DNA of 64,000 nt, taken from an uncultured bacterium (lineage in GTDB: Bacteria > CAYUVA01). The notes beneath the pieces were generated by a model that had not been told where the DNA came from, made no database searches, and saw only the letters and a list, made by a program, of their open reading frames with translations. The stretch spans positions 1 to 64,000 of the forward strand of contig CAYUVA010000001.1 of NCBI GenBank assembly GCA_964448115.1, written 5' to 3'. Shown in pieces: positions 1 through 52,343 of this stretch (positions within the stretch are counted from its first letter, which is position 1; each line of letters opens with the position of its first letter). Position numbers and translations under genes: made by a program.

Positions 1-2211
1 GATAGGTACGCGTTGCTGATCACCGCCTCGGTAAACGATATGAGAGGTACGCGGGTAAGCTCCACCGGATATGCCTCGGTCGGTATCATTGACCCGGTGG
101 GAAGCCAGAGCTATATCTCCTTGCATTACTATCCCAAGTCCCCGAAGGTGAGGGATGTGATCATATTGTTCGGGAGGATCTATCCTACCCCGATAGATCC
201 GCTATCAGAGAAGGTCACCATTAGCGCGGTCATGGATGGCGAGATTTACCAACAGCAGGCAGCGGTGGATCGCTTCGGCGCATATTACCTCGACATGAGA
301 CTTCCTGTTGCCGGTACCTTCGAGGTTGAGGCATCCTGGGATGGAGATGAGGTTTATGATCCTGATTCCTCTTTTCCGCTTACCATAACCGTGCAGAAGG
401 GGAAATCTTTCATAAGCCTCAATACCGACATAGAGCCGACGCAGACGCAAGGCAGCCTGTTCGGCAGGGTTTTTCCCCCACCGGCCAGTGGAAGCCCGGT
501 CAATATCTTCTACAGGTTCAGCAGCCTCGATGGCTCCATCGAGTACGACGGCTCAATAGAGGCATATACCGACATCAATACCACCACGCCAGCGCCGGGC
601 AGTTACCGGGTGTCATTCGATCTCGAGGATCTGCCAGTGCCCCAAGTGCCAGGTATCGTCAACGGCTTTGCATATTATCGGGGGAACCAGGATTATGAGG
701 ACTCGCGCAGCCGCATACTGTCCATACCCTGTAACCTGCCCGATGTCGGCAGGGCAATGGTGATAACCGGCTTCAGGGAGAACGCTGGGCAGAATCCATC
801 GGCGATAAATTATCTAGGCAACTATGTTTACCAGACCTTCAGGCTTCAAGGCTTCACCGACGGCGGCATATATTACTTAAGTAGTTTTTATCCTTCGGAT
901 CCAAGGCATGATGCGGTAACCACCTTGGCTGAGATAGACAAGGCGATAAGGGACTGGGCGGGAGGCTCGGTCTCGCCGCAAGTGCCATTGTACATCTACA
1001 TCAATGCGCCTACCGATCAGGATGGAGACTACCTGATCAACCAGGAGGAGACGCTAACTGCCGAGCATCTTGATGATTTGCTCGATGAACTGGTAAATGA
1101 TACTGGCTGTGAGGGGATCTATCTGTTCTTGGATGGTGATAATAGCGGGAATAACCTCCAGGCTCTTTGCGGAACCTATCGCTACCTGTTCAGCCTGGCA
1201 GGGATGGGTAACACAAACTACCTTGCGCAGGGGAAGGTGAGCCTTACCCGCTGGTTCTTCTCTTCTGTGCGCCAAAGAGAGAGCCTCGGCGAGATCGCAG
1301 CCCAGATCGCTTATCTTCTGAGCCAGATCGGAAGGTATATGAACATCAGCGAGCCTCTATTAGAGTCGTTCGAGGGCAATGATGACAACTGCATCCCCAA
1401 CCAGGCAAGCGATATCATAGTACTGCTCGACAAGTACATCGGCTATGCGGTCGGTTCTATGAACTTCGCGCCGTTGATAGAGGGCATTTCGCCCGCTGGT
1501 CATACAGAGACCTATCAGCACCGGAGCTTGATGCGCCGATCTAATGATCCCGACCGGGGCAAGGGAACACAAAACCCTCCGCCGGTGATAAAGACCTCAG
1601 GCACCGAGGGGATCTGGATTCGCTTCGCCGACTTCGAGCACCAGTATCAGCTCGGCAAAGAAGAGGTGCCGGCGCCGGAGCCATTTACCTTTATGGTAAA
1701 TCCGCACGGAGAGCTAAGCTCACTTGATGCTGCCTATCCGCCGATTCTGGTTGAGGATGATAGGTACCTCTACGAGTTACCCGGCAGTCTGTTCGACAGC
1801 GAGGGGATTTATCTATTCTTCAGCGCGTTGTCTGATAACGGGGATAATCTCTCCAACATCGGAATCACCGCTATTTATGCATCCAAGCCGAACAGCAAGC
1901 CGGCGGTGATGTTAGCTGGATATATGGACACCGCACTATCCTCCTCAAGTGGCGGCACTTTGAGTATGATAGCCATTTTCAGCGATGCCGATGGATACCA
2001 GGATCTGCACAGCGCTGAGATTTACTATCAGGGCGTTCCCACCGGCATCAGGATGGATATATGCTCAGCGGGAGCTTTGGGCATGGCTGTACTTGATCTT
2101 CAGATCCCTGCCGGACAGGCACCATTTGGCATTTATAATCTGGAGTGGACATGCCGCGACCTGCAAGGGGCGTTTAGCGACCGCTGGCCTTATCTATGGT
2201 CTGGGGATTGA
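1..2211 (+). CDS. Large surface/secreted protein, 5'-truncated: Ig-like segments, caspase/C13-like domain lacking catalytic residues, C-terminal 'WPYL' domain
   Basis: Frame is open from base 1. Beta-rich Ig-like segments (e.g. VEASWDGDEVY). The central region resembles clan CD (C13/gingipain-like) domains. The C-terminus aligns by eye with that of 22014..24737. Confidence 0.65.
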   Translation, partial: DRYALLITASVNDMRGTRVSSTGYASVGIIDPVGSQSYISLHYYPKSPKVRDVIILFGRIYPTPIDPLSEKVTISAVMDGEIYQQQAAVDRFGAYYLDMRLPVAGTFEVEASWDGDEVYDPDSSFPLTITVQKGKSFISLNTDIEPTQTQGSLFGRVFPPPASGSPVNIFYRFSSLDGSIEYDGSIEAYTDINTTTPAPGSYRVSFDLEDLPVPQVPGIVNGFAYYRGNQDYEDSRSRILSIPCNLPDVGRAMVITGFRENAGQNPSAINYLGNYVYQTFRLQGFTDGGIYYLSSFYPSDPRHDAVTTLAEIDKAIRDWAGGSVSPQVPLYIYINAPTDQDGDYLINQEETLTAEHLDDLLDELVNDTGCEGIYLFLDGDNSGNNLQALCGTYRYLFSLAGMGNTNYLAQGKVSLTRWFFSSVRQRESLGEIAAQIAYLLSQIGRYMNISEPLLESFEGNDDNCIPNQASDIIVLLDKYIGYAVGSMNFAPLIEGISPAGHTETYQHRSLMRRSNDPDRGKGTQNPPPVIKTSGTEGIWIRFADFEHQYQLGKEEVPAPEPFTFMVNPHGELSSLDAAYPPILVEDDRYLYELPGSLFDSEGIYLFFSALSDNGDNLSNIGITAIYASKPNSKPAVMLAGYMDTALSSSSGGTLSMIAIFSDADGYQDLHSAEIYYQGVPTGIRMDICSAGALGMAVLDLQIPAGQAPFGIYNLEWTCRDLQGAFSDRWPYLWSGD

Positions 2212-11524: not shown

Positions 11525-11537
11525 GGCATTCCAACTA

Positions 11538-37794: not shown

Positions 37795-37802
37795 AATGTG
37801 AT

Positions 37803-39580: not shown

Positions 39581-40557
39581 AAAGAGATAGTAAGCTAGAT
39601 GCGGCACCGATACTGATTATGCTTGTATTTCTAGCCTCTAGTGCCTATGGCATATTGATCGAAGCCATAGTCGCAATAGTCGGAGATGAGATAATAACCC
39701 TGAGCGAGTTCAATGAAAGACTTATGATGAAAACCGCGCAGCTACCGAAGGATATCGAGAGCGGCAAGTACCTTGATGAGATAAAGAAGATAAAAAAGGA
39801 GCTGCTCCAAGAGCTAATCGCTGAAAAACTGATCCTTCAAGAGGCAAAGAAAAGCTATATCGAGGTGGATGAAAACTATGTCAAAAACACCATCGAACGG
39901 CTCATGAAGGAAAACGATATCACATCCATGGAGCAGTTCGAGCAGGCGCTCTTAACCGAGGGATTCACCCTGGATGAATACAAGAAATTTCTTAATAACC
40001 AATATAAGATGTACCGGCTCAGGCAACAATATGTCGAGTCAAAGATCACCATCCTGGATAGTCAGATAGAAAAATACTACCAGGAGCATATCGATGATTA
40101 TTACCAGCCTAAACAAGCTCACCTTAGACAGATACTGCTGATAATCGATCCTGATGAGCCGCAAAAGGCCAAAAAGCTAGCAGACCAATTATATAGTAAG
40201 CTAATCGAGGGAGAGGACTTCGTGCAGTTGGCTAAGGAATACTCCCAGGGACCAAATCCAAAAGATGGCGGAGATATCGGCTTCGTAAAGCTGGATGATA
40301 TACACGCGGACTATAAAGATGCGATCCTGAAAGCACAATCAAGGGGTTTTACCCCCCCAATCGAGGTTGGCAAGGCGATCAGCATATTCCAGGTGCTTGA
40401 GAGCAAGGGTGGGGATGCAAAACCGCTCGCACAGGTCAAGGACAAAATAGAAAATAAGCTCTATAACATGCGTGCTAGAGAGCTTTTCGACCAGTGGATT
40501 GAAGAGCTAAAGGGGAAATATTACCTGGAGATCAAATATGATGTTCTTAACATTTAA
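39577..40557 (+). CDS. SurA-like periplasmic chaperone/PPIase
   Basis: Signal peptide, IVAIVGDEIITLSE (SurA N-domain), FVQLAKEYSQGP..KDGGDIGF. Confidence 0.85.
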   Translation: MKRDSKLDAAPILIMLVFLASSAYGILIEAIVAIVGDEIITLSEFNERLMMKTAQLPKDIESGKYLDEIKKIKKELLQELIAEKLILQEAKKSYIEVDENYVKNTIERLMKENDITSMEQFEQALLTEGFTLDEYKKFLNNQYKMYRLRQQYVESKITILDSQIEKYYQEHIDDYYQPKQAHLRQILLIIDPDEPQKAKKLADQLYSKLIEGEDFVQLAKEYSQGPNPKDGGDIGFVKLDDIHADYKDAILKAQSRGFTPPIEVGKAISIFQVLESKGGDAKPLAQVKDKIENKLYNMRARELFDQWIEELKGKYYLEIKYDVLNI

Positions 40558-40781
40558 TCTCGATCTCATTCAGCGAGTAGAACCTTTATAAAATCCTGTC
40601 ATTTCATTGCTCTTAAAAGTTTCAATAGCGTTTAAGATAGCAGTGTCTAAATTAAAGCACTATCGGGAAACTGAAAAGAAATCTATTTTGAAATAATCAA
40701 GCAAGGTCATAGTATCATTTTTTTGGGGTAATAAAAAATAAGGCTATTATAGCGATGTATGTTATCAATGTTTTTCAGTGG

Positions 40782-40844
40782 TCCCGAGTTGGTCGGGATT
40801 GCGGTTGCCCTAAATAAAGGGTGGGGGAAAGCCCTATCCCTACA
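40782..40844. repeat. Degenerate REP-like element with small internal palindrome
   Basis: TCCCGA-GTTGG-TCGGGA palindrome next to GGTTGCCC...CCCTAC; minus strand reads GTAGGG...GGGCAACC as in GTAG-family REPs. Confidence 0.4.
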
Positions 40845-40869
40845 TTATGATGACTTTTAACACCATTTG

Positions 40870-41001
40870 CTATAAGAAAATAATTCTTTTTAGGTTGATA
40901 TTTTTTAAAGGAATATTTGTAGGTTCAAATAGCATCCTTAAACCATAAATATTATCTTCTGGATAGAAATCTCCATGATTGCCGTCATCCTTCAGGTAAT
41001 A
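40870..41001 (-). pseudogene. Fragment of a surface-protein gene (LxDDGxHGD motif)
   Basis: Manual translation YYLKDDGNHGDFYPEDNIYGLRMLFEP..., a motif seen in choice-of-anchor-X-like domains; starts just beyond the IS630 remnant. Confidence 0.4.
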
Positions 41002-41020
41002 AGATATTCTAATTGATATG

Positions 41021-41125
41021 TCATAAATAGCGACATCCACAAAGTGTCATAAACCGCTCCACAGAAATCTCCCTTAGCGCACTTTGAACTGCCTCCATTA
41101 GATCTTCTAATCGAAACTGAGGCAA
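41021..41125 (-). mobile_element. IS630-family transposase C-terminal remnant
   Basis: Manual translation LPQFRLEDLMEAVQSALREISVERFMTLCGCRYL* resembles IS630 C-termini (LE.L...V...L.......SLC.C.YL). Confidence 0.5.
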
Positions 41126-41126
41126 T

Positions 41127-42392
41127 TTATTCACTGCTAAAACCAAATAAGCGCTCTGCATTATCATGTAAAACAAGACTTAACTGTTCTGATAAAAGGC
41201 CACATGCTCTCACAAACGCAAGTTCACGTGCAATAACTCTGTCTCTGTATCCTTTCACCAAGCCAAAAGGGTGGTCAGATCCAAATAATACACGCTCCGG
41301 TCCAACAATCCCCACGAGCTTCCTAATGACGGTAGCATCCCATACTGTACTTGTATTAAAGTACACCTCGCCAAAGTTATAGAGCCCATGCGCAACTTCT
41401 ATTACCCCTTTTCCAGAGAAGGGAATGTTCCTTCCGCTGTGACAAAGAAGGATTTTTAGATTTGGAATCTTCCCTAGGGTGTATTTAATACGGTCCACCT
41501 TGTCCTGCATATGGGGATGTAACATTAGCGGTACACCCTTCTCAGCAATCTTCTTATACTGCTTCAGGTAAGTGTCTCTATAGCAACGCATTAGATAGGA
41601 GTTCTCTTTGAATCCGCATGCACCTTTTTTTAACCAATAATCAATGTCAGCAGAAATAAGTGGAAGGAAGCGAAAGCGGTCTGGATATTTTTGATAGGCT
41701 TCATAAATGTAATTAGTCACCTTATTAGGATCAACTTGGTTTGAGGGAAAGGGTAGGATCACAGACTTGCTAATTCCCGCTGAGTCCATAACATTTAATA
41801 ACCTACTCGTGGTGTTAGAGAATTCAAATTGGGTAGATATTCCTGAATTTGTATTTTGAAAATTTGGTGGAAAGAGTTCTTTGGGACATAAATTAACATG
41901 ACAGTCGATAATTTTATGTTTATTAATAGGTGTCACCTCGGCTCTCCAATACTTTATTTTTCCTTTTGGTGTTGAATTAACCATCTTCATTCCCATCTTG
42001 AGATTGAGCTGAGCCACACTCTCATTTTCACTGAGACTTTTTGCTTCGAGACCGCGGCACTTGGTTTCAGTGAGTAGATGAAGAAACAGAAGAACACCTA
42101 CGCCCTTACCTCTGTATGTTGAATTGACAATTACTTCTTCTATGAAATAGCTACCGTTCTTCTGATCCTTCTTGTGTAAAGTACCAACAATTTTTCCCTC
42201 CAACTCCGCAACTACAACGTGTCCTTGAGGCGATCCGCAATCAGCTTTAAGTCGTCGCAACTTATCTCCTCTCCCAAGGGCAAGTAATTTATATCCATCT
42301 TGGTCTAATTGAGCCAATTCAACAATCAAATTGGCTTCATCAGCTCTAGAGAAGCGAGTCTCTACAGCTAGGTTTTTTTTCAGGGAATTCAT
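41127..42392 (-). CDS. GNAT acetyltransferase fused to amidohydrolase_2 domain
   Basis: VNSTYRGKGVG (acetyl-CoA motif A), then IIDCHVN, LHPH, HSG, VLFGSDHPF. GAGGAAG RBS precedes ATG 42392. Confidence 0.82.
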   Translation of the reverse strand: MNSLKKNLAVETRFSRADEANLIVELAQLDQDGYKLLALGRGDKLRRLKADCGSPQGHVVVAELEGKIVGTLHKKDQKNGSYFIEEVIVNSTYRGKGVGVLLFLHLLTETKCRGLEAKSLSENESVAQLNLKMGMKMVNSTPKGKIKYWRAEVTPINKHKIIDCHVNLCPKELFPPNFQNTNSGISTQFEFSNTTSRLLNVMDSAGISKSVILPFPSNQVDPNKVTNYIYEAYQKYPDRFRFLPLISADIDYWLKKGACGFKENSYLMRCYRDTYLKQYKKIAEKGVPLMLHPHMQDKVDRIKYTLGKIPNLKILLCHSGRNIPFSGKGVIEVAHGLYNFGEVYFNTSTVWDATVIRKLVGIVGPERVLFGSDHPFGLVKGYRDRVIARELAFVRACGLLSEQLSLVLHDNAERLFGFSSE

Positions 42393-42531
42393 TTTCGCTT
42401 CCTCTAATCTCAAAATGTTTTTTCGTCATATTACCTATTAATTTAATTATTAGTGTCTTCTTGTCAAGTTTTTTTCCAGAGATCATTTTGAGTTAGACAA
42501 ACAAGACCTTTAATGCTTTAGTTAGCTATAG

Positions 42532-43875
42532 TTATAAAAAACTCAAAGAGTATGGAGCTCCAAAACGCCGTATCTTTTTTTCAAGTCTCATCTTATGTTC
42601 ATGACGGTCATGGAAACGCAGCGTCGCCTCGTGGCAAAACTTTATGATGTCATCCCCACGCACAGGAGAAAGCCCCCGTTCGTAGGAAGCAAGCACATTG
42701 AACTCATTTGCACCGATCAGTCCCCTATTGTGTGCCATTTGCCAAAGCTGTGAACCATGTGTGTAACCAAGTACCTTGAGTTTCACGGTATCAAGAGGGA
42801 GAGAAAGGATAAAATCTAGAGTTCGATTCATGTCTTCAAGTGTCTCCTCTGGAGCACCAAAGATGAAGTTACCCACGGTGAAAATACCCACACTGTTACA
42901 TGTTTCTATTGCACGAACTATTGTATCTACATTCAAGGGCTTGCAATAGAAACGAAGCACTGATGCGTTGCTAGATTCTAGACCGAAGCTAATAGCTCTC
43001 ACGCCCGCTTTCCTCATTAGTAAGTACAACTCCTTATCGTGCTCGTTTGCCCAACCACTGAGTGTGATTTCAAGGCGTAGTTTCATTCTAAGAATACGTT
43101 CCATAATCTCCTGAACCCGACGCCGATCAAACAGGAAATTATCATCAATGATCGCTACTGTCCGGTAGTTCTGCTGCTGCAAGTAGGACAGTTCATCAAC
43201 AACTGACTCAACATCTCGGGTACGGTAAAGGTGTCCTGATATGCTAGGCCTAGCACAAAAGGTGCAGCGACCTGCACATCCCCTAGCGGTAAGTAATGTG
43301 GTGCAAAACTTGAGGAGTAGTTTGCGAGAAGGGCTAGAACTCTTAAGTAACCTCCGTGCCGGGTATGGAAAATCATCCAAATTTTTGGGCAACAGGTCTT
43401 CTGTAGTTGCAGTAATGGTTCCACTGGAAGGAACTACAATGCCGGGTACTGTAGGAAACTCCCCATTTAAAAGTTGCTCCAGCAGTTCAGAAATACGATT
43501 TTCGCCTTCGCCTACCATACCATAATCCGCGAATTGTGGAATTGCTTGTCTCAGAGTTATGTCTGGTCCTCCTACTAGTATAATCGCGTCGGATTTCTGC
43601 TGTCTAATCCGTGAAACCACAGTCTGACCTGCTTGCCTCGAGTATCCGGCTATGCTAACGCAAAAAATCCAGTTTCTATCTATAAATGAATTCCATACAC
43701 TTTTCTGATTGAGATCTTCCTCAGTATCAAGAAAACATATTTGTGGAATCCATCCATGCTGGTGGAGACAAGAGCAGAGGTACAGAACACCAATAGGGAT
43801 ACCGAAACGCTTCGACTTATCGATGTCGGGCCAAGGAATGATAAAACCTACTTGTCGCTCACGGACTTTATTCAC
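42532..43875 (-). CDS. Cobalamin-binding radical SAM enzyme (class B methyltransferase-like)
   Basis: PIGVLYL, VGGPDIT, GEGE B12-domain motifs; RGCAGRCTFC (CxxxCxxC); DDNF; GLES; FIFGAPEET. Confidence 0.88.
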   Translation of the reverse strand: MNKVRERQVGFIIPWPDIDKSKRFGIPIGVLYLCSCLHQHGWIPQICFLDTEEDLNQKSVWNSFIDRNWIFCVSIAGYSRQAGQTVVSRIRQQKSDAIILVGGPDITLRQAIPQFADYGMVGEGENRISELLEQLLNGEFPTVPGIVVPSSGTITATTEDLLPKNLDDFPYPARRLLKSSSPSRKLLLKFCTTLLTARGCAGRCTFCARPSISGHLYRTRDVESVVDELSYLQQQNYRTVAIIDDNFLFDRRRVQEIMERILRMKLRLEITLSGWANEHDKELYLLMRKAGVRAISFGLESSNASVLRFYCKPLNVDTIVRAIETCNSVGIFTVGNFIFGAPEETLEDMNRTLDFILSLPLDTVKLKVLGYTHGSQLWQMAHNRGLIGANEFNVLASYERGLSPVRGDDIIKFCHEATLRFHDRHEHKMRLEKKIRRFGAPYSLSFL

Positions 43876-43891
43876 TTCTAGTAGCTCTGAA

Positions 43892-45589
43892 TCAATCTGT
43901 TGGGTTCACTGAATTGTCTAAGTTGCAAAATTTACTTTTAGTCGTTGAATCCTGTAGCATCTTTATCTGTTCTTCAATGTTCATTGCTTTTGTAAAACTA
44001 CCTACTGTATACATCCGTTCCAGATAAATTTGATTGTCTCTGTCTCGAAAGGAGATATGCTGAGTGAATGTCTTTGCTGAGCATTCCAAGTGTTCAGCCC
44101 GAATATGACAGCCTCGCGTCTCCTCTCTCGCTAACGCTGCCGCAATCGCCATCGACAAAACGACTGCTTGGTTGCGAAGTGCAGGATTTGATATACCAAG
44201 AAGTGTCTGGGTTGCTAACTCTGCTCTTCGTAAAGACTGAGCTGTGCGTATCAACCCAAGTGAGTCATTTATTGAAGCATGTATAATCTCGTGGAAAGCC
44301 GTGACCTGCTTCAAAGAAAGCGAAGTCACTGTTTCAACAGAGTACAGCTGCCTTGAGACTAAGGAGTCTGGAATGCGTACCCCAGCATGGCTAAACTCTA
44401 AGCCCATCACATCCGAATGGCATTGAGAACATGCAGAGTAAACACGGCCAGCTCCCCATAGTCCAGACCGGCATTCTCCAATAGCATACAAACCAGGAAC
44501 TGTTGTTGCCATGTTTCTGTTCACAACCACTCCTCCCATGGTAAAATGGGCAGCGAATTCAACAGGAATGCCGGGCGATCTACGGAGAAGCTCAAACAAA
44601 GGAAGAAGAAGATCACGACGATTCCATTTCTTGTTAGGTAATCGTCCCAGCATGTTACTTATACCTTTTCTGATTGTATCAGCCTCCAAGATGGCACGAC
44701 GATTGGGAACGATTTTATAGTACCCATCAGGCTTGTTTAATCTATCAAAAGCTAGTGCCAGCGAGATAACCTCCTTTGGTGCTCGCTCTTTATGGTGTAT
44801 TCCGAGCTCAGTCAGTGGCGACGAATCATCTTGTCGACGGAGTTCACCCACTCCGAACACCGTAACGAGAAAGTGAAGATTCAATCTCCACTTCGTTGTC
44901 TTTTGTGAAACAGGTAAGAAAGGAACATACTGAATAAATTCCATGTCTGCGATTTGTGCACCTAAACGAGCTGCCGCTCCTATACCTTCCCCACGCGCGA
45001 AAGGACTCGCTGTGCTTTTCGAGAAAATACCAGCCCATCCTCCAGTCGCCAGGACAGTATAGGTTGCTACTATAGTAATAAGCGACCGACCAAGTCCCTT
45101 AAAAATTGCACCGCCACATAATTCTAGACCGCCTAGTAATTCAAGCAAACAAATATTAGATAAAACAGTAATATAGCGATGCTTTACAACCTCTACAGCG
45201 AGTCGCTGACACCACTCCCATCCAAAAAGGAAACCAGCACGACGAAATTCACTTCCATGCTCGTAACTCACTCTTCGAAACTGCAGGCCATACTTTGAGA
45301 GTTCGGATTCGACTTCACCACACCGACAGCAGTAGTCCCAAATGTGTTCGTCTCTATTAACCAGGAATCCCTCACAAGCAATGTCTGCTCTAAGGTGAGT
45401 GATAGTATCACCAGCATCCACATCGATCACGGTGAAATCAGCTCCCGCGATCCATGATGCTGAGCTTTCCGCAAGGCGACCCTTATGTGTTAAAATCGTT
45501 CTAAGTCCAATATTAGCTGCCTTCAGAGCAGCAAGCATTCCTGCAGCACCAGCTCCTACTATCAGAACATCCGTGTCAAAACGATTCAC
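43892..45589 (-). CDS. FAD-dependent oxidoreductase, SdhA/FrdA/NadB flavoprotein family
   Basis: DVLIVGAGAAG, LATGG, DMEFIQ, HFTMGG, PGLYAIGE, REETRGCH. Confidence 0.85.
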   Translation of the reverse strand: MNRFDTDVLIVGAGAAGMLAALKAANIGLRTILTHKGRLAESSASWIAGADFTVIDVDAGDTITHLRADIACEGFLVNRDEHIWDYCCRCGEVESELSKYGLQFRRVSYEHGSEFRRAGFLFGWEWCQRLAVEVVKHRYITVLSNICLLELLGGLELCGGAIFKGLGRSLITIVATYTVLATGGWAGIFSKSTASPFARGEGIGAAARLGAQIADMEFIQYVPFLPVSQKTTKWRLNLHFLVTVFGVGELRRQDDSSPLTELGIHHKERAPKEVISLALAFDRLNKPDGYYKIVPNRRAILEADTIRKGISNMLGRLPNKKWNRRDLLLPLFELLRRSPGIPVEFAAHFTMGGVVVNRNMATTVPGLYAIGECRSGLWGAGRVYSACSQCHSDVMGLEFSHAGVRIPDSLVSRQLYSVETVTSLSLKQVTAFHEIIHASINDSLGLIRTAQSLRRAELATQTLLGISNPALRNQAVVLSMAIAAALAREETRGCHIRAEHLECSAKTFTQHISFRDRDNQIYLERMYTVGSFTKAMNIEEQIKMLQDSTTKSKFCNLDNSVNPTD

Positions 45590-46134
45590 TGAAGTGCTTT
45601 CCTCCTCGCAGCAACTACAATTCCAAAGTGACGATGAGGTTGCCTATGCGATGAATCGATACCTGACCAAGAATGCGATAATATGATGGAGCACCTGTCC
45701 GGGGGGAAAATATCCTTTGGCTTGATGAGTGGTTGTCTGTCCAAAAATCCACCCCAAATAAAAAAACCGCCGACCATAAGGTTATGCCAACACATTCCAG
45801 CAACTTTTAGTTGCTCGGTGATTGACAAATGCTGGAATACATATAGGCAGACAATCATATCGTAAGGTCCTCCTCTGTAACAGCTACTATCTACCACATT
45901 TGCTAAATTTGCTTCGAGTCCAAGTTGACAACACAGTTTTACTGATGTCTCGTTGAGATCCACGCAATAAACCTTCCAGCCTAGTCCTTGAAGGTAGGTG
46001 GCATTGCTTCCATTACCCGCACCTAGATCTAGACAGCGACCGGGTTTGATAACCTTTGCTAATCTTTTTAAAAAGGGATTTACCTTATGGTTTAAGTAAT
46101 ATCCATCTAATGTGTATGAATTCAGCTCTCTCAT
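45586..46134 (-). CDS. Class I SAM-dependent methyltransferase (TehB-like)
   Basis: LDLGAGNGSNA, VDLN, YDMIVC. Start moved to MRELNS (46134), just after the creatininase stop. Confidence 0.8.
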   Translation of the reverse strand: MRELNSYTLDGYYLNHKVNPFLKRLAKVIKPGRCLDLGAGNGSNATYLQGLGWKVYCVDLNETSVKLCCQLGLEANLANVVDSSCYRGGPYDMIVCLYVFQHLSITEQLKVAGMCWHNLMVGGFFIWGGFLDRQPLIKPKDIFPPDRCSIILSHSWSGIDSSHRQPHRHFGIVVAARRKALQ

Positions 46135-46138
46135 TGCT

Positions 46139-46921
46139 TTAAGCTGGGGGAATTTTGTCCCACTCTTCGAGTAAACTCTGCAAGTGAATAATCCACTTTT
46201 CAATAAACTCTGCTGACTGACCAACCGCCTTCCGCGGATCTAAGGTCGATATTACACCCGTTTGAGTTATCCGCTTAGTTCGGGCCGGGAGACACGCGTC
46301 TAAAAGGGATCGCTTTATGGAATCACTGGGAGTGCCAAGTAGCGATTTAATGTGAGGTTGCAGATCCTTGGATGGCTCAAGGTGTTTTAGAGCACTGCGA
46401 TCAACTAACTCAGGCAATAGTGTGAGAACAAAGTCAGTTTCAGAATGACCAGCATGAATGTCTAAATCCTCATATCTTCGCTTAAGGATTGAGTAGGGGG
46501 GTTCAGGTATGACTATCTGGACTCCTTCATGACTTAGAGCAATCTGCTGGCGAGCAAGCTGCAGCGTAGGGATATTGCCACCGTGGTGGTTTATCCATAG
46601 GAAGCGCTTTAAGCCGTGTAATATAAGAGATTCTGTCAACTCCATAAGCAGTTTGAGTAGAGTCTCTGAGGAAATTGAAATAGTCCCCGGCCAATCGGCA
46701 TGGTGAAAACTGACCCCAAATGGGATGGCCGGCAGGAGAATTGCTCGGCACTGTTCGCATAATAAACGACATATTACCTCCGCACCCAGATAGTCTGTAC
46801 CTAGAGGTAGATGAGGACCATGCTGCTCTATTGAGCCTAATGGAAGAACTCCAACTACTTGTTTCTCTTTCTCAAGGATCTCTCGGAGTTGCATGGTTGT
46901 TAACTTCGTGAGCTCAATCAT
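46139..46921 (-). CDS. Creatininase family protein (MftE-like amidohydrolase/peptidase)
   Basis: PLGSIEQHGPHLPLGTD, GVSFHH...PGT, NHHGGN, HAGHSET. Confidence 0.92.
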   Translation of the reverse strand: MIELTKLTTMQLREILEKEKQVVGVLPLGSIEQHGPHLPLGTDYLGAEVICRLLCEQCRAILLPAIPFGVSFHHADWPGTISISSETLLKLLMELTESLILHGLKRFLWINHHGGNIPTLQLARQQIALSHEGVQIVIPEPPYSILKRRYEDLDIHAGHSETDFVLTLLPELVDRSALKHLEPSKDLQPHIKSLLGTPSDSIKRSLLDACLPARTKRITQTGVISTLDPRKAVGQSAEFIEKWIIHLQSLLEEWDKIPPA

Positions 46922-47987
46922 CAGTTAAATGACTATCGCTATGTTTCAGGTAAAAACACTGGGGATCTTCGTCCATAACATCTTGCGTTCTTGAGAAAGC
47001 AACCGCTCGACACCCGCCACAGAGAGCTACAAGGTCGCATCCATGGCATCGACCTTTAAGGTTATACTTGTTTCGAATCTTCCATAGAAGTTCGGATCCG
47101 TACCAGATCTTGAATATCGTGTCTGTCCTCAAATTCCCAATGGGAATCGGTAGCCGTCGACAAGGTAAAACGCTCAAGTCTGGCATGATAGTCATAGCAT
47201 CCAGACCAATAGAGCAACTCGCCCCCAACTGCAAAGTCGCTGGTAGATGGGACTGAGCCTTTGTGTGATTAGGATCCAGAGCAGCCCAAAGGGGGCGAAA
47301 CTTGAGGACCTTGAGGTTGCTACCAGAAGCATGGAGAATCTTTGAAGCCTGCCAAATGTCTAAATATGTATTCATAAGCTCGGATGCATTTAATATCTCT
47401 GTGCTTAAATGCTCACCTCTGCCGATGGGTACAAGCCGCTCTATGCTGATGCTGTCACAACCATAATCTCTGGCAAGCTCCAAGATGTCTCTTACCTGAT
47501 GTCTGTTGGATCGGAATAGCGTGAACATGATGCTGGTTGTAACTCCAGCATTTCGTAACGAGTTTAGGGCGGACAGGGCTTTTCTAAAAGTACCATTCCC
47601 TCGAATGGCATCGTGTACCTCCTCCGTCGCTCCGTCTAGTGATATTTGGATTCTTCGCAGGTGTGTAAAAGCCCTGCAACTCTTAGCTGTCCAATCGTCT
47701 ATAAGGATACCGTTCGAGAGAATATCGAAGAAGTCAAGCCATGGCTCATCATCAAGTCTCCTCAAAAGGTCATAAAGGTTTCTGATCAGGAACGGTTCTC
47801 CACCAGTCACTGCCACGCGCCCAGGTAAACGCCATTTCATCAAGGCTGTGCTGATGCGAGAAAGTACTAAGTTGAAATCGTCCAAGCTGATCGTGTCTTG
47901 ATAACCGTCACTATTCTGGTAGCAATGTTTGCAACGAAGATTACAGCTCTCCGTGAGGTGCCATTGAAAGTAAAACCGCCTTTCCAT
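46914..47987 (-). CDS. Radical SAM/SPASM peptide maturase
   Basis: CNLRCKHC, TGGEP, QISLDG...HDAIRG.GTF; SPASM CSIG...PC...IGNL...CHGC....CGGCRA...DPQC. Confidence 0.92.
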   Translation of the reverse strand: MERRFYFQWHLTESCNLRCKHCYQNSDGYQDTISLDDFNLVLSRISTALMKWRLPGRVAVTGGEPFLIRNLYDLLRRLDDEPWLDFFDILSNGILIDDWTAKSCRAFTHLRRIQISLDGATEEVHDAIRGNGTFRKALSALNSLRNAGVTTSIMFTLFRSNRHQVRDILELARDYGCDSISIERLVPIGRGEHLSTEILNASELMNTYLDIWQASKILHASGSNLKVLKFRPLWAALDPNHTKAQSHLPATLQLGASCSIGLDAMTIMPDLSVLPCRRLPIPIGNLRTDTIFKIWYGSELLWKIRNKYNLKGRCHGCDLVALCGGCRAVAFSRTQDVMDEDPQCFYLKHSDSHLTDD

Positions 47988-48800
47988 CTATTCCTCTTTT
48001 CGCGACATAAGGAGTGCTCTCCATGCCCAAGCAGAACCCTCATCTATGTGATGGCATTGCCAAAGTCCAAATGGTTTTTGAGTTTCACAGAGGAATCGAA
48101 TTCCAGCTTTACACACTGCTTCCATCTTCAAGCTCGAGTTGTAGTTCAAAGCGAGGATTGCCAATCCAGTGTAAAGTGTCTGGGAACCAATGGGATGACC
48201 ATTCCAAGGCGCCCAACCGCCATCTGCCTCTCTTTGATCAGCTAGCCAACCTTGGAGTCCTGGAACATCTGGATGGTCTTTATTGAGTGCGAGGATCACA
48301 TAAGCCGCCTTGTAGTTGGCACATAGTCCTCCCGTGCTTGATTGCAGTTCCTTTTGCCATTCGTCAAGCAACCATATTTGTGTGGTTCGTAGGATCATAT
48401 TGGGAAAAAGCATTCCTATCAGGCAAGTCACTGGAATCCTTGACATGTCTCGTCTTGACCTACCCCAGGCTCCGTTGCTATGACGGTCACTCTCTAAATT
48501 CTCCAAAGCTCGTTGAAGCAAGTCTTGCTCGCCAATCTCCTTGAAAAACGCAGCGCACCATAAAGTATCTACGGTATCTGCCCACCCTCCGTCAGCATGT
48601 TGACGCTGGGTAAGAAGATTTGTGATTCTTTGTTGCAAGCATAATGGGATATTGATTCCGCCGAGAGATAGAAGACACGCTAGACGTGCAACCCGGAGTG
48701 TTTCTATCTGCTTCCATGTCATCTCCTGTAGTAAATGAAATAAGGCTATCGAAGAACGGTGGATAGCCAAGTCAACGGGATTGGTTAATTCCCTTGGCAT
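47988..48800 (-). CDS. Prenyltransferase/squalene-cyclase repeat (alpha-alpha barrel) protein
   Basis: Four QW-type repeats: QHADGGW, RHSNGAW, QREADGGW, QKPFGLW. Start moved to MPRELTNP (48800) because the upstream extension overlaps the precursor gene. Confidence 0.8.
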   Translation of the reverse strand: MPRELTNPVDLAIHRSSIALFHLLQEMTWKQIETLRVARLACLLSLGGINIPLCLQQRITNLLTQRQHADGGWADTVDTLWCAAFFKEIGEQDLLQRALENLESDRHSNGAWGRSRRDMSRIPVTCLIGMLFPNMILRTTQIWLLDEWQKELQSSTGGLCANYKAAYVILALNKDHPDVPGLQGWLADQREADGGWAPWNGHPIGSQTLYTGLAILALNYNSSLKMEAVCKAGIRFLCETQKPFGLWQCHHIDEGSAWAWRALLMSRKEE

Positions 48801-48876
48801 CTCAGTTGTATAGACTAATATAAAACTAGACTTGTTAATGGAGCTTTTATGTACACCAATATTATATGTATGTTTG

Positions 48877-49053
48877 TTAATTGCATCCGTGGCAGTTGGT
48901 GCACCCAAAGCACCAGTTACCATTGTTGAAGCTCTCCCAGATTTCCTGAGGGAATAGAAGCCCTTCTTGCTTTTCGAGAACTGGAGTCTCGAACTTGAAT
49001 TTAGGTTCTTCCTTGACTGCCTCGCTAGTGGCTTGGAGTTCATATTCTTTCAT
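48877..49053 (-). CDS. Putative RiPP precursor peptide, 58 aa (not in ORF track)
   Basis: MKEYELQATSEAVKEEPKFKFETPVLEKQEGLLFPQEIWESFNNGNWCFGCTNCHGCN*. CAGGAGG RBS; ATGA overlap with the PqqD gene stop; acidic leader and Cys-rich core. Confidence 0.88.
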   Translation of the reverse strand: MKEYELQATSEAVKEEPKFKFETPVLEKQEGLLFPQEIWESFNNGNWCFGCTNCHGCN

Positions 49054-49382
49054 GGTTTTCCTCCTGTCTTGTTTATTAGTATAGCTAATTCTACACTCTT
49101 CTTCAATAGTTCCATAAGGTCTCCGACAGCTGAGTTAGGCAAGTTCTTGCACCGTAAACCGAATCTCTCTAGGGCAGACTTAAAGGAGCAAGCTTGCTGG
49201 AAACACATAAGGAACTGAAAGGATGTCTCATTTAGCTTGAAGTAGTCCCCAGATGCTGTATTGAAGCACCAGTATTGTTTTTCTCGTAGCGAGAGCTCCT
49301 GTAGAATAATATCGTTGCTCAGTTCATAGGTATCATTTGAATTGATGCTTTTCTCTCGCTGGTAGTCTATCTCTTTTTCCAT
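49050..49382 (-). CDS. PqqD-family RiPP recognition element (RRE) protein
   Basis: About 110 aa; beta3-alpha3 pattern with FNTASGDYFKLNETSFQFL and C-terminal DLMELL..SVELAILI, typical of PqqD. Start uncertain (49382 or 49436). Confidence 0.82.
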   Translation of the reverse strand: MEKEIDYQREKSINSNDTYELSNDIILQELSLREKQYWCFNTASGDYFKLNETSFQFLMCFQQACSFKSALERFGLRCKNLPNSAVGDLMELLKKSVELAILINKTGGKP

Positions 49383-49424
49383 AGTTCTGTCCGAAATTCT
49401 CTGTAACTTCGTTATCCTAATATC

Positions 49425-49453
49425 TAAATACATCATTCAATCTCTCATGTCAA
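49425..49453 (-). promoter_or_regulatory. Candidate sigma70 promoter of the RiPP operon
   Basis: Minus strand TTGACA-17 nt-TATTTA upstream of the PqqD gene. Confidence 0.45.
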
Positions 49454-49754
49454 GGGGTAATCTCGTCTTCTGTGATTCAGACAGTAAACGGGGCATAACT
49501 TCTTGATATTCATAATGCGCCTGTGTCTGCTTAAAAAATGAACAGGGCAACTTTAATATATAAAAACCAAAACTTGGATCCAGAGCCTCCGATAGCGAAA
49601 ATGATGGTAAATCGAGATAACAATCCCCAGAAAATCACACACAAATTGAAAAAGTGCCCAGCTCTATGACTTAATGCCTAGAAGACCTGAAAATACCTTG
49701 CGACACTAAGATAAAGTAGTGGATACCCTCCCTAGGAAATGTCTTTTGTATCCC

Positions 49755-49874
49755 TCAACCATTGTCGTCTCTGGAAACCTTCCCTGTTCCTTGAATATCT
49801 GCGACTTGTTCCACGGGATATTCCGCGGCTGCTATGATGGCTCTTAGTCTAAGGACAAGTTTTGATTCCTTAGT
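49755..49874 (-). mobile_element. IS630-family transposase N-terminal (HTH) remnant
   Basis: Manual translation TKESKLVLRLRAIIAAAEYPVEQVADI...VSR, followed by a decayed WIKRF..EGI-like segment; typical of the IS630 winged HTH. Confidence 0.5.
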
Positions 49875-49876
49875 TG

Positions 49877-51433
49877 CTAGTATAATGCATTCAATCTTGA
49901 TGGTTCCAAATTCCGTATCCGCCTGGGGAGATCTTGTAGATGCCTGTTGAATTCCTCCCCTGAGATCATGTATCGCTTCATATTAGGCGTTACTGCTCCC
50001 TCCTCGACTCGCTTGGCAACGCCTGCCCTGGTCGCGGCATACTCAGCAAGGTCGCTATCCTGGTAAGGGAAGAAGGTAACCGTCAGCGTGGCTGCATCGA
50101 AGTAGTTGAAGTAAAATGTGTCCGCTGCGTACTGATATAACTGCGTCTTCCATCCCCTCCTGTCCACGAAGTGAATCCAGAGCCTGTTTTGCATGTCCAT
50201 GTAAACCTCGACCCTGCCGAACTCGTAGGGATCGAAATAGTCCCCCGTGTAAATGCCCCAGGTAGAAGGTGGTGTGGAGTAGTCCGGCGGCTCTGTATCC
50301 GGCAAATCGAGAAAGATATCGAGCGCCTTTGCTGCCACCTCGCCGGGATCGTGATTATAAGTGTTTAGCATGACTACGACCCCGAAGTCCTTTTCCGGCA
50401 CCATCCACATGCTGGTCAGGAAACCGTATATCCCGCCATCATGCATGACAACGTGCTCTCCCTTGTAATCGTAGGACATCAAGCCGTAGCCATAATAGTA
50501 TCCTGGTATCATGCGGGTGAATACATGACCCATGGTCATCTCCCGTACCGATTCTGGGCTGAGCACATCAGCGCCATCAGCCAGGAGCATCTCGAAGAAT
50601 CGCGCCATATCCTTTGCGGACGAGAAAAGCAAGCCGGGCGGCCATGCCAGTGCGCAATCGTAGCTATCCGGCTCCCAGTATTCGACCTGGTTCCCATGAA
50701 ATATATGTCCTGTGGCTGAGTCCCTCATGGCAGCCTCGCTTGCATCATAGGTAACATCGATCATCCCACAGGGGGTGAAGATCAGCTCATCCATGGTCTG
50801 TTTATATGGCGCGCTGTACATCTCCTCTGCGATAAGCCCCAGCAGGCTATAGCCGAGATTGCTGTAGTTCCAGAGCCTGCCTGGCGGGGACCATAGCGGG
50901 AAATTGGGATGCTCGTGGAACCAGCGCGATAAGGCTCCATCGTCGGTATCGCACCAGATCTCTATATAATCAGGGATGCCGGATGTATGCGTCATGCAGT
51001 TCCAGACCGATACGCTCGAAGGGTCATCAGGGTCGAGATCGAAGTATGGTACATAGTCGGTTACCGGTCGCTTCACATCTATCAATCCCTGCTCGACCAG
51101 GCGCATAATAGCTGCACAAACCAGCATCTTATTGGTGGAGCCGCCTCTGAACAGGGTATCCTCGGTGACCGGATCACTGTCTCCATAGCGCTTGATGCCG
51201 ACCCCAGCCGAGAATGACAGCTTGCCTTCGATGATCACCGCAATGGAAGCTCCCGGGAAGGAGCTTGCCTGTGCCCTTTGCTTCACATAAGCCAGGAATT
51301 CTTCCCACTTGACCTGCCAGGGATCTTCTTGTCCATCATCCCCATCATCCTTTGAGCAAGCGACTAGCAGGGCTATGGCTGCGATCAAAAATACGAGCAA
51401 CAGCTTAGATAAAGCCTTGGCTGGGTTATTCAT
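49877..51433 (-). CDS. Serine hydrolase (beta-lactamase/AmpC-like) lipoprotein
   Basis: Lipobox LLVAC, SxxK (GSTNK), HTSG, YSN, HDGG motifs. Confidence 0.88.
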   Translation of the reverse strand: MNNPAKALSKLLLVFLIAAIALLVACSKDDGDDGQEDPWQVKWEEFLAYVKQRAQASSFPGASIAVIIEGKLSFSAGVGIKRYGDSDPVTEDTLFRGGSTNKMLVCAAIMRLVEQGLIDVKRPVTDYVPYFDLDPDDPSSVSVWNCMTHTSGIPDYIEIWCDTDDGALSRWFHEHPNFPLWSPPGRLWNYSNLGYSLLGLIAEEMYSAPYKQTMDELIFTPCGMIDVTYDASEAAMRDSATGHIFHGNQVEYWEPDSYDCALAWPPGLLFSSAKDMARFFEMLLADGADVLSPESVREMTMGHVFTRMIPGYYYGYGLMSYDYKGEHVVMHDGGIYGFLTSMWMVPEKDFGVVVMLNTYNHDPGEVAAKALDIFLDLPDTEPPDYSTPPSTWGIYTGDYFDPYEFGRVEVYMDMQNRLWIHFVDRRGWKTQLYQYAADTFYFNYFDAATLTVTFFPYQDSDLAEYAATRAGVAKRVEEGAVTPNMKRYMISGEEFNRHLQDLPRRIRNLEPSRLNALY

Positions 51434-51672
51434 TTTGGCTTCGCCGGTTAGAGTTACCATTTGATTTTCCGGTTATATTCTATTCATTGGTGGCAAACAA
51501 AATCAAGCTGGTTTCCTGGTCTGGGTTGACATCACCTGGTCAAGGATGGGATAAATTACTGATTTTGAAGTCGAAATAGGCTCGATTGCCCCAGATGTTC
51601 CAGGGAAATCAAAAATTCTTGGCAAACTTCAAGAATGAAAAAACTGCTTTAATTACAAGCACTTAGTGGCAA

Positions 51673-51688
51673 TGTTCCACATGGAACA
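51673..51688. promoter_or_regulatory. parS-like ParB-binding palindrome
   Basis: Intergenic TGTTCCACATGGAACA, one mismatch to the TGTTCCACGTGGAACA variant of the bacterial parS consensus; the palindrome extends to AA...TT. Confidence 0.7.
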
Positions 51689-51706
51689 TTTTTGTAGGAT
51701 AGCTGC

Positions 51707-51889
51707 CTAGCGCTTGGGATTTTTGCCGAGCGCCTTAGCGGTGCGCTGAACGATCGCATTGGTCTCCTTATGCCGCTGGATGATCTCAAGCCCGACGCTT
51801 GATCTTGCCAGTGAAAGACAAAGACGGCGCAGTTGTTCTACCTGCCTTAATCTACTAGTTACCGCAGCCGAGCTCATATCAATCTTCAT
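51707..51889 (-). CDS. Small basic hypothetical protein coupled to the nucleotidyltransferase
   Basis: MKIDMSSAAVTSRLRQVEQLRRLCLSL...; the start overlaps the stop of the upstream NTase gene. Confidence 0.6.
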   Translation of the reverse strand: MKIDMSSAAVTSRLRQVEQLRRLCLSLARSSVGLEIIQRHKETNAIVQRTAKALGKNPKR

Positions 51890-52343
51890 CGAGAATACTC
51901 CCCAGATACTCGATGTCATCCTTGTCCTGCCCGCTACCGCGTAGTGATTTCATCAAAATCAATCCCTTTGGAGATAGGATGCTAATAACACCATTCTCCC
52001 ATTCCACGATTCTTCGCCCATCCCAGGCTGATTTAATCGCTTTGGTTACTGGTAGTACATCTAAAATCAATGTTTCCCCTGAGCCAGGGGCAGCCTTCCA
52101 GAAACGGTAGATTATGACCTTACCATTATGGAAGCTCAACCGTGGTGTGCTTTTAGTGTATCCCAGGTCCTGGACAGTTTTACTCAATTCATCAATCGAT
52201 TTAGGCTCAACCATGATGTCGATGTCCAGCGTTGCTCTCGGCATCGCATATATAGCCATAGCCAATCCCCCGCAAAGAGCATACTCAATCCCTTTTTCAT
52301 CAAGCCTAGAAATTATGCCTTGCAGCTCATCGATAATATCCAT
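51879..52343 (-). CDS. Nucleotidyltransferase-fold protein (AbiEii/DUF6036-like)
   Basis: YALCGGLAM..Y..PRATLDIDI and C-terminal LILMK..RG..QD..DIE.L. Confidence 0.8.
   Translation of the reverse strand: MDIIDELQGIISRLDEKGIEYALCGGLAMAIYAMPRATLDIDIMVEPKSIDELSKTVQDLGYTKSTPRLSFHNGKVIIYRFWKAAPGSGETLILDVLPVTKAIKSAWDGRRIVEWENGVISILSPKGLILMKSLRGSGQDKDDIEYLGSILDED

Follow-up and report, generated by a model that had tools for sequence, protein, structure and literature searches.

A probable radical-SAM peptide-modification cluster of an undescribed family, with precursor genes also carried by phages

A nine-gene operon, inferred to modify a small four-cysteine peptide, was identified on the minus strand of the window, a stretch of 64,000 nucleotides from an uncultured bacterium (contig CAYUVA010000001.1, positions 1 to 64,000). 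Four of its genes recur together in other uncultivated bacteria, encoding a PqqD-type recognition protein, a 58-aa precursor ending in four cysteines, a protein with a predicted single-domain squalene-hopene-cyclase (SHC) fold, and a radical SAM (rSAM)/SPASM enzyme. The peptide family has no name in the libraries searched, is common in sediment metagenomes, and also occurs as a lone gene in many phage genomes. [quoted passage not shown]

Gene content of the operon

Open reading frames were read from the minus strand, and their products were searched against Pfam and NCBIfam (Table 1). The first-pass annotation had reported nine co-oriented, tightly packed genes, more AT-rich than their flanks, and this observation is confirmed: all nine ORFs lie where it placed them. 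The PqqD-like and precursor genes overlap by 4 nt, the SHC-like and rSAM genes abut, the rSAM stop and creatininase start overlap by 8 nt, and the methyltransferase and flavoprotein genes overlap by 4 nt, with the flavoprotein starting at GTG; gaps of 16 nt and about 118 nt separate the B12-rSAM gene from the flavoprotein gene and from the last gene, respectively. The GC content is 0.38-0.47 across 40500-49999, against 0.50-0.56 at 34000-38500 and 0.53-0.54 at 50000-51500.

Table 1. Genes of the cluster, all on the minus strand, with Pfam results
Position	Probable start	Predicted product	Pfam
49050..49436	49382 (110 aa)	PqqD-family RiPP recognition element (RRE) protein	no direct hit
48877..49053		58-aa precursor peptide: leader with FETPVL (YxxPxL-type), middle FPQEIW, core WCFGCTNCHGCN	no hit
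47988..48800 (ORF to 49043)	48800 (270 aa)	Single-domain alpha/alpha-toroid protein (predicted squalene-hopene-cyclase fold)	SQHop_cyclase_C 1e-6
46914..47987		Radical SAM/SPASM peptide maturase candidate	Radical_SAM 3e-22, SPASM 6e-7
46139..46921		Creatininase-family amidohydrolase	Creatininase 5e-52
45586..46224	46134	Class I SAM-dependent methyltransferase	TehB, Methyltransf_23/11/12/25
43892..45589		FAD flavoprotein of the L-aspartate oxidase / succinate dehydrogenase flavoprotein superfamily	FAD_binding_2 2e-26, with a succinate-dehydrogenase-type C-terminal domain
42532..43875		B12-binding radical SAM enzyme (probable methylase)	Radical_SAM 3e-24, B12-binding 5e-6
41127..42413		GNAT acetyltransferase fused to a metal-dependent hydrolase/decarboxylase domain	GNAT, Amidohydro_2

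Several details of the first-pass annotation required correction. The protein it called PqqD, 128 aa as an ORF, gives no Pfam or NCBIfam hit on its own, and is shown to be PqqD-type only through its relatives, a family profile and its predicted fold. It is 35% and 42% identical to the homologues at two other loci, L016 and L020; the homologue at L020 and that at L160, the one other cluster seen for the window's peptide subtype, pass Pfam PqqD with 26.4 bits (cutoff 23.4) and 41.7 bits. A family profile searched against PDB sequences hit the lasso B1 protein TbiB1 (8.4e-5), PqqD (1.1e-4) and the lasso B1 protein TfuB1 (4.2e-4). The structural model has a pLDDT of 76.6, and its best Foldseek hits, though weak (E 4e-3), are RREs, namely TbiB1 with bound leader (TM 0.73-0.76 by target). 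The cluster has, as in RRE-dependent RiPP pathways in general, a PqqD-fold recognition element encoded beside a short precursor.

The supposed prenyltransferase-like protein, a 351-aa ORF, overlaps the precursor gene, and its probable start was placed by alignment with relatives. It is one alpha/alpha-toroid domain and not a proven prenyltransferase. It is 30-36% identical to 24 homologues, with 26 invariant columns and QW-like DGGW repeats. Its model (pLDDT 92.1) was matched by Foldseek to drimenyl diphosphate synthase, SHC and MstE at TMq 0.66-0.73, with 14-18% sequence identity to the structures; thioester domains of complement/alpha-2-macroglobulin were matched as well. In contrast to class II terpene cyclases, it has one toroid domain instead of two, and no DxDD general-acid motif is among the invariant columns. 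The peptide, described as Cys-rich, has four cysteines in 58 residues, all within the last 11.

The peptide family and its conserved neighbours

In family searches for the peptide, 221 of 230 candidates reached E<=0.01, and 291 clusters at 50% identity reached E<=1e-3, all of 40-114 aa among the 150 listed. The family has a lasso-like YxxP leader motif, present in 29 of 29 distinct cluster-linked peptides, and an invariant Cx2Cx2Cx1-2C tail. No Pfam or NCBIfam model matches it, 24 family members gave no NCBIfam hit, and no paper in the searchable library contains its motif.

A search centred on the SHC-fold protein found 6 close loci among 12 confirmed. Of these 6, 5 carry the peptide in the stretch examined; the sixth is cut by a contig end, and its genome has the peptide on another contig end. 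Of 80 metagenome loci found through the peptide, a set biased towards the conserved core motif, 31 carry rSAM, PqqD or SHC homologues, with rSAM in 27, SHC in 24, an Asn-synthase-type gene in 23 and PqqD in 21 of the 31. The gene order rSAM-PqqD-precursor repeats across Planctomycetota-, Desulfobacterota- and KSB1-labelled contigs. The window's rSAM, with a full CX3CX2C motif (CNLRCKHC) and a seven-Cys SPASM motif within the C-terminal 100 residues, is 40-47% identical to rSAMs next to the same peptide, and in the tree the rSAMs beside this peptide separate from the AhbD-like paralogues with support 88/93. The enzyme clade is, however, not strictly tied to the peptide, as one complete genome (G021) has an rSAM at 39% identity that nests inside the clade but has no peptide and no SHC gene.

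An alternative, that the peptide is an unmodified small metal-binding (Zn, Fe or Cu) protein whose position next to the rSAM is regulatory or coincidental, we consider very unlikely. Its four cysteines form two CxxC knuckles, and lone copies in phages have no neighbouring maturase; on the other hand, a PqqD-type RRE sits next to the peptide in most complete cluster loci, the leader motif matches the RRE type, and the gene order is conserved across the contigs named above.

The remaining genes of the window are less widely shared. The cluster at L160 repeats the arrangement rSAM-PqqD-precursor(...WCFGCTNCNCN)-amidohydrolase/GNAT-...-SHC-B12 rSAM, with the amidohydrolase and GNAT domains fused in the opposite order directly after the precursor gene, and with a B12-rSAM homologue (24-34% identical, split into two ORFs) at its end. 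The creatininase, methyltransferase and flavoprotein are missing from every other readable cluster locus: 0 of 31 metagenome loci, 0 of 6 genome loci, and L160. The creatininase has only 3 relatives above 36% identity; as one of them (48%) and a 62% rSAM relative both list a longest contig of 27,238 nt, it probably recurs once. The methyltransferase and flavoprotein are linked to the cluster by operon structure only.

Comparison with curated systems and the proposed pathway

The reading offered in the first-pass annotation, a new RiPP class built on mycofactocin logic, is supported in part. The small ORF is a real, conserved precursor-like peptide beside homologues of the same rSAM/SPASM, PqqD-type and SHC-fold genes, no curated family or searched paper covers it, and none of the nine products has an exporter or C39 peptidase domain; the mycofactocin analogy, however, is a resemblance and not a membership. 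Both systems combine a small peptide, a PqqD-type chaperone, an rSAM/SPASM enzyme, a creatininase-family hydrolase, a flavin oxidase and a methyltransferase in one operon without an exporter. Yet the MftC model (TIGR03962) scores 115.5 bits against a cutoff of 265, and the MftE model (TIGR03964), the best curated hit of the creatininase, 110.9 against 172. The precursor has no relation to MftA, which ends in GVY, whereas the peptide ends in NCHGCN. The flavoprotein is from the NadB/SdhA family (NadB model 143.9 against 452.75) and not the MftD family, the SHC-fold protein, B12-rSAM (best NCBIfam model HpnJ, 121 against 577.6) and GNAT-amidohydrolase have no counterpart, and most relatives of this family lack the creatininase. 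For PQQ biosynthesis, the PqqE model (TIGR02109) scores 76.5 against 381, and the peptide has no family hit.

The best NCBIfam models for the rSAM are all below cutoff. AhbD heme b synthase (TIGR04545), the public name on some relatives, scores 171.3 against 500. The closest curated peptide-linked models are the ACGX-system rSAM (TIGR04340; 162.1 against 400, and 204.5 for L020) and the SbtM thio(seleno)oxazole maturase (TIGR04082; 147.7 against 350, and 163.6 for L020). The peptide has no ACGX repeats and no selenocysteine; SbtM, which turns Cys into a thiooxazole with loss of 4 H (PMC11002830), carries its own N-terminal extension, since the window protein aligns only to model positions 199-516. 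With sactipeptides and ranthipeptides (thioether peptides made by rSAM/SPASM enzymes; e.g. thurincin H, SCIFF/CteB, PapB, CrpC), the cluster shares an rSAM with a full SPASM domain next to a Cys-bearing peptide; its Pfam SPASM match and seven C-terminal cysteines fit the criterion of a SPASM domain holding two auxiliary clusters. The Cx2Cx2Cx2C spacing equals that of thurincin H. CrpC shows that Cys-rich neighbours of SPASM enzymes can receive ranthionine links (PMC13692751). Here, however, the RRE is a separate protein, the cysteines lie at the extreme C-terminus, the maturase models score low (StsB 87 against 625, AlbA 66 against 850, PapB 77 against 340 on the L020 homologue), and an SHC-fold partner is not known in those classes. 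With the lasso machinery, it shares a B1-like RRE and the YxxP(x)L leader, and most relatives have an Asn-synthase-domain gene. There is, however, no B2 protease and no Gly/Ala-1 with Asp/Glu-7..9 core, and the L020 AsnB scores 139.3 on the lasso cyclase model (NF033535, cutoff 525) but passes the true AsnB model (329.8 against 267.1). The window has no Asn-synthase-type gene in the cluster, and only generic AsnB genes elsewhere in the genome.

In the pathway we propose, the precursor would be bound through its FETPVL leader motif by the PqqD-type protein, as YxxPxL/YxxP is a known RRE-binding leader motif (PMC10368454; PMC13381572), and presented to the rSAM/SPASM enzyme, which would act on the four-cysteine tail. 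Thioether cross-links to upstream residues are the most likely outcome, with a cysteine-derived heterocycle as the second choice. The SHC-fold protein would be the third obligatory partner, acting on or holding the modified peptide. The window's version would then be tailored by a B12-rSAM methylase, a SAM methyltransferase, an amine-oxidase-type flavoprotein, a creatininase-type amidohydrolase, probably the peptidase that removes the leader or trims the product, and the GNAT-amidohydrolase fusion. Only the gene anatomy has been demonstrated; leader binding, core modification, any thioether link and every other chemical step are inferred, with every curated maturase model far below its cutoff.

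A variant close to the first-pass suggestion of an intracellular cofactor or metal-binding product, which is likewise hypothetical, would have the rSAM modify the C-terminal residues, the creatininase-type hydrolase cut off the modified tail and the flavoprotein oxidize the freed amine, with methylation and acetylation finishing a compound that stays inside the cell, as in mycofactocin or PQQ. The MftE similarity, the L-aspartate oxidase relationship of the flavoprotein and the lack of an exporter domain in the nine genes speak for it, as do the last ten or so residues, which are nearly invariant across the 291 clusters and several phyla; such conservation is more typical of cofactor precursors than of bacteriocins. 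Relatives also carry a glycosyltransferase and a metallo-beta-lactamase-fold protein, paralleling MftF and PqqB. We nevertheless consider this variant unlikely, given the absence of the creatininase and flavoprotein from the other readable loci and the MftC, MftE and PqqE scores; further, a cofactor does not explain lone precursor genes in phages.

Lone precursor genes in phage genomes

The family's most unusual trait was missed in the first-pass annotation: the precursor gene alone sits in many tailed-phage genomes. The peptide is encoded at 39 IMG/VR loci, of which 38 have the ORF and none has rSAM, PqqD or SHC within 10 kb; 27 of the 39 have enough flank to be called lone, 21 of these with at least 2.5 kb on both sides. 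Phage hallmark genes lie beside the lone copies. Of 9 viral records searched whole, 0 have the rSAM, and 5 of them are rated 100% complete; the peptide may therefore have a role that needs no maturase. Scans of the whole viral collection found no SHC homologue and only 23-35% identical rSAMs. The leader motif is kept in 34 of 35 distinct lone peptides.

These observations would also fit a phage-host conflict module, in which the modified peptide is part of a defence or toxin-antitoxin-like system and phages carry the precursor as decoys or as replacement antitoxins processed by the host maturase. Many cellular clusters also hold an N6/N4 DNA-methylase-type gene and a 1050-aa TPR + metallo-beta-lactamase-fold protein, and the system is patchy, with the SHC gene found in 1 of 151 genomes of one order, the one genome the search was centred on. 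However, PADLOC 2.0 models matched only generic viperin-like (pVip) similarity of the rSAM and type II methylase similarity of the methylase, with 0 families for SHC, PqqD and the peptide, and the window's own cluster lacks the methylase and the TPR protein. This reading, for which we have genomic evidence only, is regarded as unlikely.

Radical-SAM peptide pathways are a main source of new enzyme chemistry and of antibiotics and cofactors. The family is large, with over a thousand related rSAM clusters (1395 rSAM relatives) beside the 291 peptide clusters, spans several phyla of uncultivated anaerobes, and is labelled by automatic annotation only 'hypothetical' or 'heme synthase'. It brings in a predicted fold, the squalene-cyclase toroid, not known from peptide maturation, and the window offers a compact nine-gene version that could be expressed heterologously. 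The lone precursors in complete phage genomes raise the testable question of whether phages use or sabotage host peptide-maturation enzymes. A more far-reaching possibility, doubtful on present evidence but not excluded, is that this would be the first RiPP-type pathway whose precursor is routinely carried as a lone gene by tailed phages, which would depend on, or interfere with, a host-encoded rSAM/PqqD/SHC-fold machine by feeding their own copy of the peptide into the host enzymes, either to make the product for their own benefit or to block a host function; the SHC-fold protein would then be a new kind of peptide-modifying or peptide-holding partner.

The operon and its surroundings

The first-pass annotation had described nine co-oriented minus-strand genes, more AT-rich than their flanks, as a candidate RiPP cluster, and this observation holds. 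The reading frames are tightly packed: the PqqD-like gene and the 58-aa ORF overlap by 4 nt, the gene of the toroid (SHC-fold) protein abuts the rSAM gene, rSAM and creatininase overlap by 8 nt, the methyltransferase stop overlaps the GTG start of the flavoprotein, 16 nt separate the flavoprotein from the B12-rSAM, and about 118 nt precede the last gene. GC is 0.38-0.47 inside the region and 0.50-0.56 outside it. Pfam confirmed seven of the nine labels, whereas the precursor and the 128-aa protein gave no direct match to Pfam or NCBIfam. Neighbouring genes differ in strand or composition and are not part of the cluster. Coordinates of these and of the other features considered here are compiled in the following table.

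Coordinates of the operon, its neighbours and features in related loci
Record	Position	Strand	Feature
Window	30099-32465	-	788-aa protein with two class I methyltransferase domains and a coiled-coil-like tail, just upstream of type II secretion genes
Window	32619-37298	+	Type II secretion genes
Window	up to 40557	+	Type II secretion genes, a molybdopterin-binding-domain (MoCF_biosynth) gene and two SurA-like genes
Window	41127-49436	-	Nine ORFs of the operon
Window	49877-51460		Beta-lactamase-family gene
Own genome, contig C8, outside the window	65231-66259		One of 30 rSAM/SPASM-like matches in this genome, with a single in-frame TGA
L017 (locus in genome G021)	9846-10862		rSAM 39% identical to that of the window
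L052 (phage contig)	9317-9493		Lone precursor gene
L106	5516-7029		Lone peptide gene next to a transposase
L112 (316-kb viral record)	8971-10123		Asn-synthase-domain gene directly upstream of the peptide gene; two tandem peptide genes, one with extra cysteines
L126 (viral record)	686-1484		Asn-synthase-domain gene directly upstream of the peptide gene
L160 (sister cluster)	11454-12590		Truncated class II (Asp/Asn/Lys-type) aminoacyl-tRNA-synthetase paralogue

The genome is a 3.98-Mb assembly of 86 contigs rated 94% complete, and all 40 genomes available as relatives are labelled only as 'same domain'. It has one precursor copy, no TPR/MBL protein and only generic AsnB genes. The in-frame TGA in the rSAM/SPASM-like match on contig C8 could mark a selenoprotein or a broken gene. 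A search of positions 40000-52500 against Rfam returned no match at E<=0.1, and no notable repeats were found. Promoter-like and terminator-like sites around the operon are no more frequent than in shuffled sequence (15 against 17.7 and 8 against 7.2, respectively). A search for sequencing runs listed three DNA data sets from one sample, which may be the source, and no RNA.

Recurrence of the core genes and the peptide family

Four of the genes recur together elsewhere. The best hit of the rSAM among the 40 other genomes (genome G002, 42% identity) lies in a locus with the order rSAM, PqqD-like protein, a 46-aa peptide ending CRQCSGCHGCR, a DNA-methylase-type gene, a 1071-aa metallo-beta-lactamase-fold protein, SHC-fold protein, AsnB and glycosyltransferase. 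A collection-wide scan with the SHC-fold protein gave 12 confirmed loci, 6 of them close (E<=1e-32), with the record labels Sedimentisphaerales, Desulfobacteraceae/-ales, Desulfosalsimonadaceae, Deltaproteobacteria and KSB1. Five of the six carry the peptide; the sixth is cut by the contig end, and its genome has the peptide at another contig end. All related loci come from uncultivated organisms.

A scan of metagenome contigs with the peptide profile gave 284 confirmed stretches, of which the best 80 were kept for a census. Homologues of rSAM, PqqD or SHC are present in 31 of these; 14 carry a lone peptide (6 with at least 2.5 kb on both sides, 8 probable), 33 are too short to judge, and in 2 our pattern found no ORF. 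Among the 31 cluster loci, we counted rSAM in 27, SHC in 24, an Asn-synthase type gene in 23, PqqD in 21, a TPR/MBL giant protein in 14, a glycosyltransferase in 14, a 578-aa unknown protein in 8 and a P-loop protein in 4. As many of these contigs are short and hide neighbours, the counts are lower bounds. The scans relied on short degenerate patterns and kept at most 80 loci.

For the peptide family, a word-indexed search found 221 proteins at E<=0.01 among 230 candidates, all of them 'hypothetical' and none with a Pfam domain. An exhaustive profile search found 291 clusters at 50% identity with E<=1e-3, and 135 with E<=1e-10. The typical form is YEKPx[LFI]xK...[ML]xFPxEII..., ending in FNGGRFCVQCSxCHGCR or SGKRIVCRQCSxCHGCR. 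The peptide of the window is an outlier ending WCFGCTNCHGCN, and its nearest relatives end WCFGCSNCNCS (a cluster of 42 members, P0229), WCFGCTNCNCN (P0261) and WCPQCSSCHGCN. Only the four Cys, the Pro of the leader motif and the Phe of the FP motif are invariant across these. We considered a heme-binding CxxCH motif but rejected it, as His is not invariant and the closest relatives end ...CNCN or ...CNCS without it. NCBIfam gave no credible hit for any of 24 members. Literature searches, restricted largely to open journals and to main texts, found no paper on this peptide motif, no paper holding the motif strings and none on phage-borne precursors of this kind, although the supplements of the RRE surveys PMC7470986 and PMC12710340 could list this family.

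Recognition protein, rSAM, predicted toroid protein and window-specific genes

The 128-aa protein is identified as a PqqD-type RRE through its relatives and its predicted fold. Its homologues in two other cluster loci, L020 and L160, pass Pfam PqqD, and a profile of 20 family members hits TbiB1 (8.4e-5), PqqD (1.1e-4) and TfuB1 (4.2e-4) among PDB sequences. The predicted model (pLDDT 76.6) finds TbiB1 with bound leader first, with a TM of 0.73-0.76 by target, albeit at a weak E of 4e-3. Lasso-type RREs bind a YxxPxL/YxxP leader motif (PMC10368454; PMC13381572); the leaders of the family carry exactly this motif, and the window has FETPVL. A lasso peptide reading of the cluster was nevertheless rejected, as the test for membership in that class was negative.

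The rSAM has the motif CNLRCKHC and a seven-Cys SPASM tail. Its best curated models are AhbD (171 against a cutoff of 500), ACGX (162 against 400) and SbtM (148 against 350), while MftC scores 115.5 against 265 and PqqE 76.5 against 381. In a tree of 30 sequences, the peptide-linked enzymes separate from AhbD-like paralogues with support 88/93, with the window on a long branch. The enzyme of genome G021 (37-39% identity) nests inside, next to that of L160; both branches are long, so this placement is unsure. It stands alone in a genome rated 100% complete that has neither peptide nor SHC gene, which is a real exception. Among relatives of the rSAM, 1395 clusters reach E<=1e-60. Some are named 'AdoMet-dependent heme synthase' by their source and two carry archaeal labels (Methanoperedens, Methanoregula); relatives with such a name or label (P0512, P0515, P0525, P0527) are 44-46% identical to the rSAM, and SHC-fold look-alike clusters are listed for Methanobacteriota in two rows of an Atlas search. 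The system may reach archaea, and the heme-synthase name is probably wrong for this clade.

With 24 homologues, the toroid protein gave a confident model (pLDDT 92.1), which resembles single domains of class II terpene cyclases (TMq 0.66-0.73) and, more weakly, thioester domains of complement and alpha-2-macroglobulin. The invariant residues are DGGW, WG, RD..RI..T, YK, S, Q, G.W..H and G. As they hold no DxDD and no conserved Cys/His metal site, catalysis as a terpene cyclase or prenyltransferase, the latter suggested by the 'prenyltransferase-like' label of the first-pass annotation, was rejected. A complex prediction of the toroid protein with the precursor scored 0.01, which we do not take as evidence either way.

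BLAST with the five tail proteins found nothing in the 6 genome loci or the 80 metagenome loci. A scan of viral contigs with the peptide subtype of the window found two loci. One of these, L160, lies in a 133-kb IMG/VR record whose flanks look cellular, with an RtcR-type activator and an amidoligase. Its gene order is rSAM (43% identity), PqqD (PF05402, 1.5e-10), precursor (...WCFGCTNCNCN), an Amidohydro_2+GNAT fusion in the reverse domain order, a class II aminoacyl-tRNA-synthetase-like protein, SHC (32% identity) and a B12-rSAM split into two ORFs. The B12-rSAM and the GNAT/amidohydrolase fusion therefore belong to this subtype. The synthetase paralogue occupies the place where the main family has an Asn-synthase-type gene, and both enzyme types activate carboxylates with ATP. 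The creatininase has only three relatives above 36% identity, at 75%, 53% and 48%. The 48% relative and a 62% rSAM relative come from the same source, both have two contigs and both list a longest contig of 27,238 nt, from which we infer, without having seen the DNA, that they share a contig; the same comparison between peptide clusters and creatininase relatives gave no match. The methyltransferase and flavoprotein are tied to the cluster only by overlapping reading frames.

Lone precursor genes in phages and interpretation of the pathway

The precursor family also occurs as a lone gene in tailed-phage DNA, often near lysis or packaging genes (loci L052, L110-L148 and L159). In L052, the peptide gene lies between an endolysin and a ParB-methylase, and the contig also encodes terminase (2e-34), portal (4e-75) and head protease (2e-51). 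Other lone copies sit beside terminase or portal genes (L063, L114, L136, L139), a primase/helicase (L044) or a transposase (L106; phrog_506, 1e-95), the last, noted for L106 and L107, with a distant (27%) rSAM 4 kb away. A scan of IMG/VR gave 39 loci, of which 38 show the ORF and none has rSAM, PqqD or SHC within 10 kb; 27 have enough flank to be called lone. Nine viral records searched whole have no rSAM homologue, five of them being rated 100% complete and three having terminal repeats. Collection-wide scans of viral contigs found no SHC homologue and only rSAMs of 23-35% identity. The leader motif is kept in 34 of 35 distinct lone peptides, against 29 of 29 cluster-linked ones; however, the core motif was part of the search patterns, so that its conservation in these sets is by construction, and one of the two viral patterns was the leader itself. 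Clustering of the neighbours revealed no conserved phage partner gene.

The anatomy is that of an RRE-dependent radical-SAM peptide pathway, a general statement that we consider likely. The first-pass interpretation of the cluster is supported in part. What the sequences show is gene content and order, whereas leader recognition, the modification of the peptide and the nature of the product are inferred. For the cysteines, we tentatively take thioether cross-linking as the most likely reaction. This rests on the Cx2Cx2Cx2C spacing, which is that of thurincin H, and on the precedent that SPASM enzymes beside Cys-rich substrates install thioethers (PMC13692751). Thiooxazole formation as by SbtM (PMC11002830) is the alternative. 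An intracellular cofactor or metal-binding molecule had been suggested in the first-pass annotation, and a cofactor-like product stays possible in view of the near-invariant core across phyla, the lack of an exporter and the creatininase/flavin pair. A role in phage-host conflict also stays possible, given the phage copies and a distribution patchy enough that the SHC gene turned up in 1 of 151 genomes of one order, the genome on which the search was centred.
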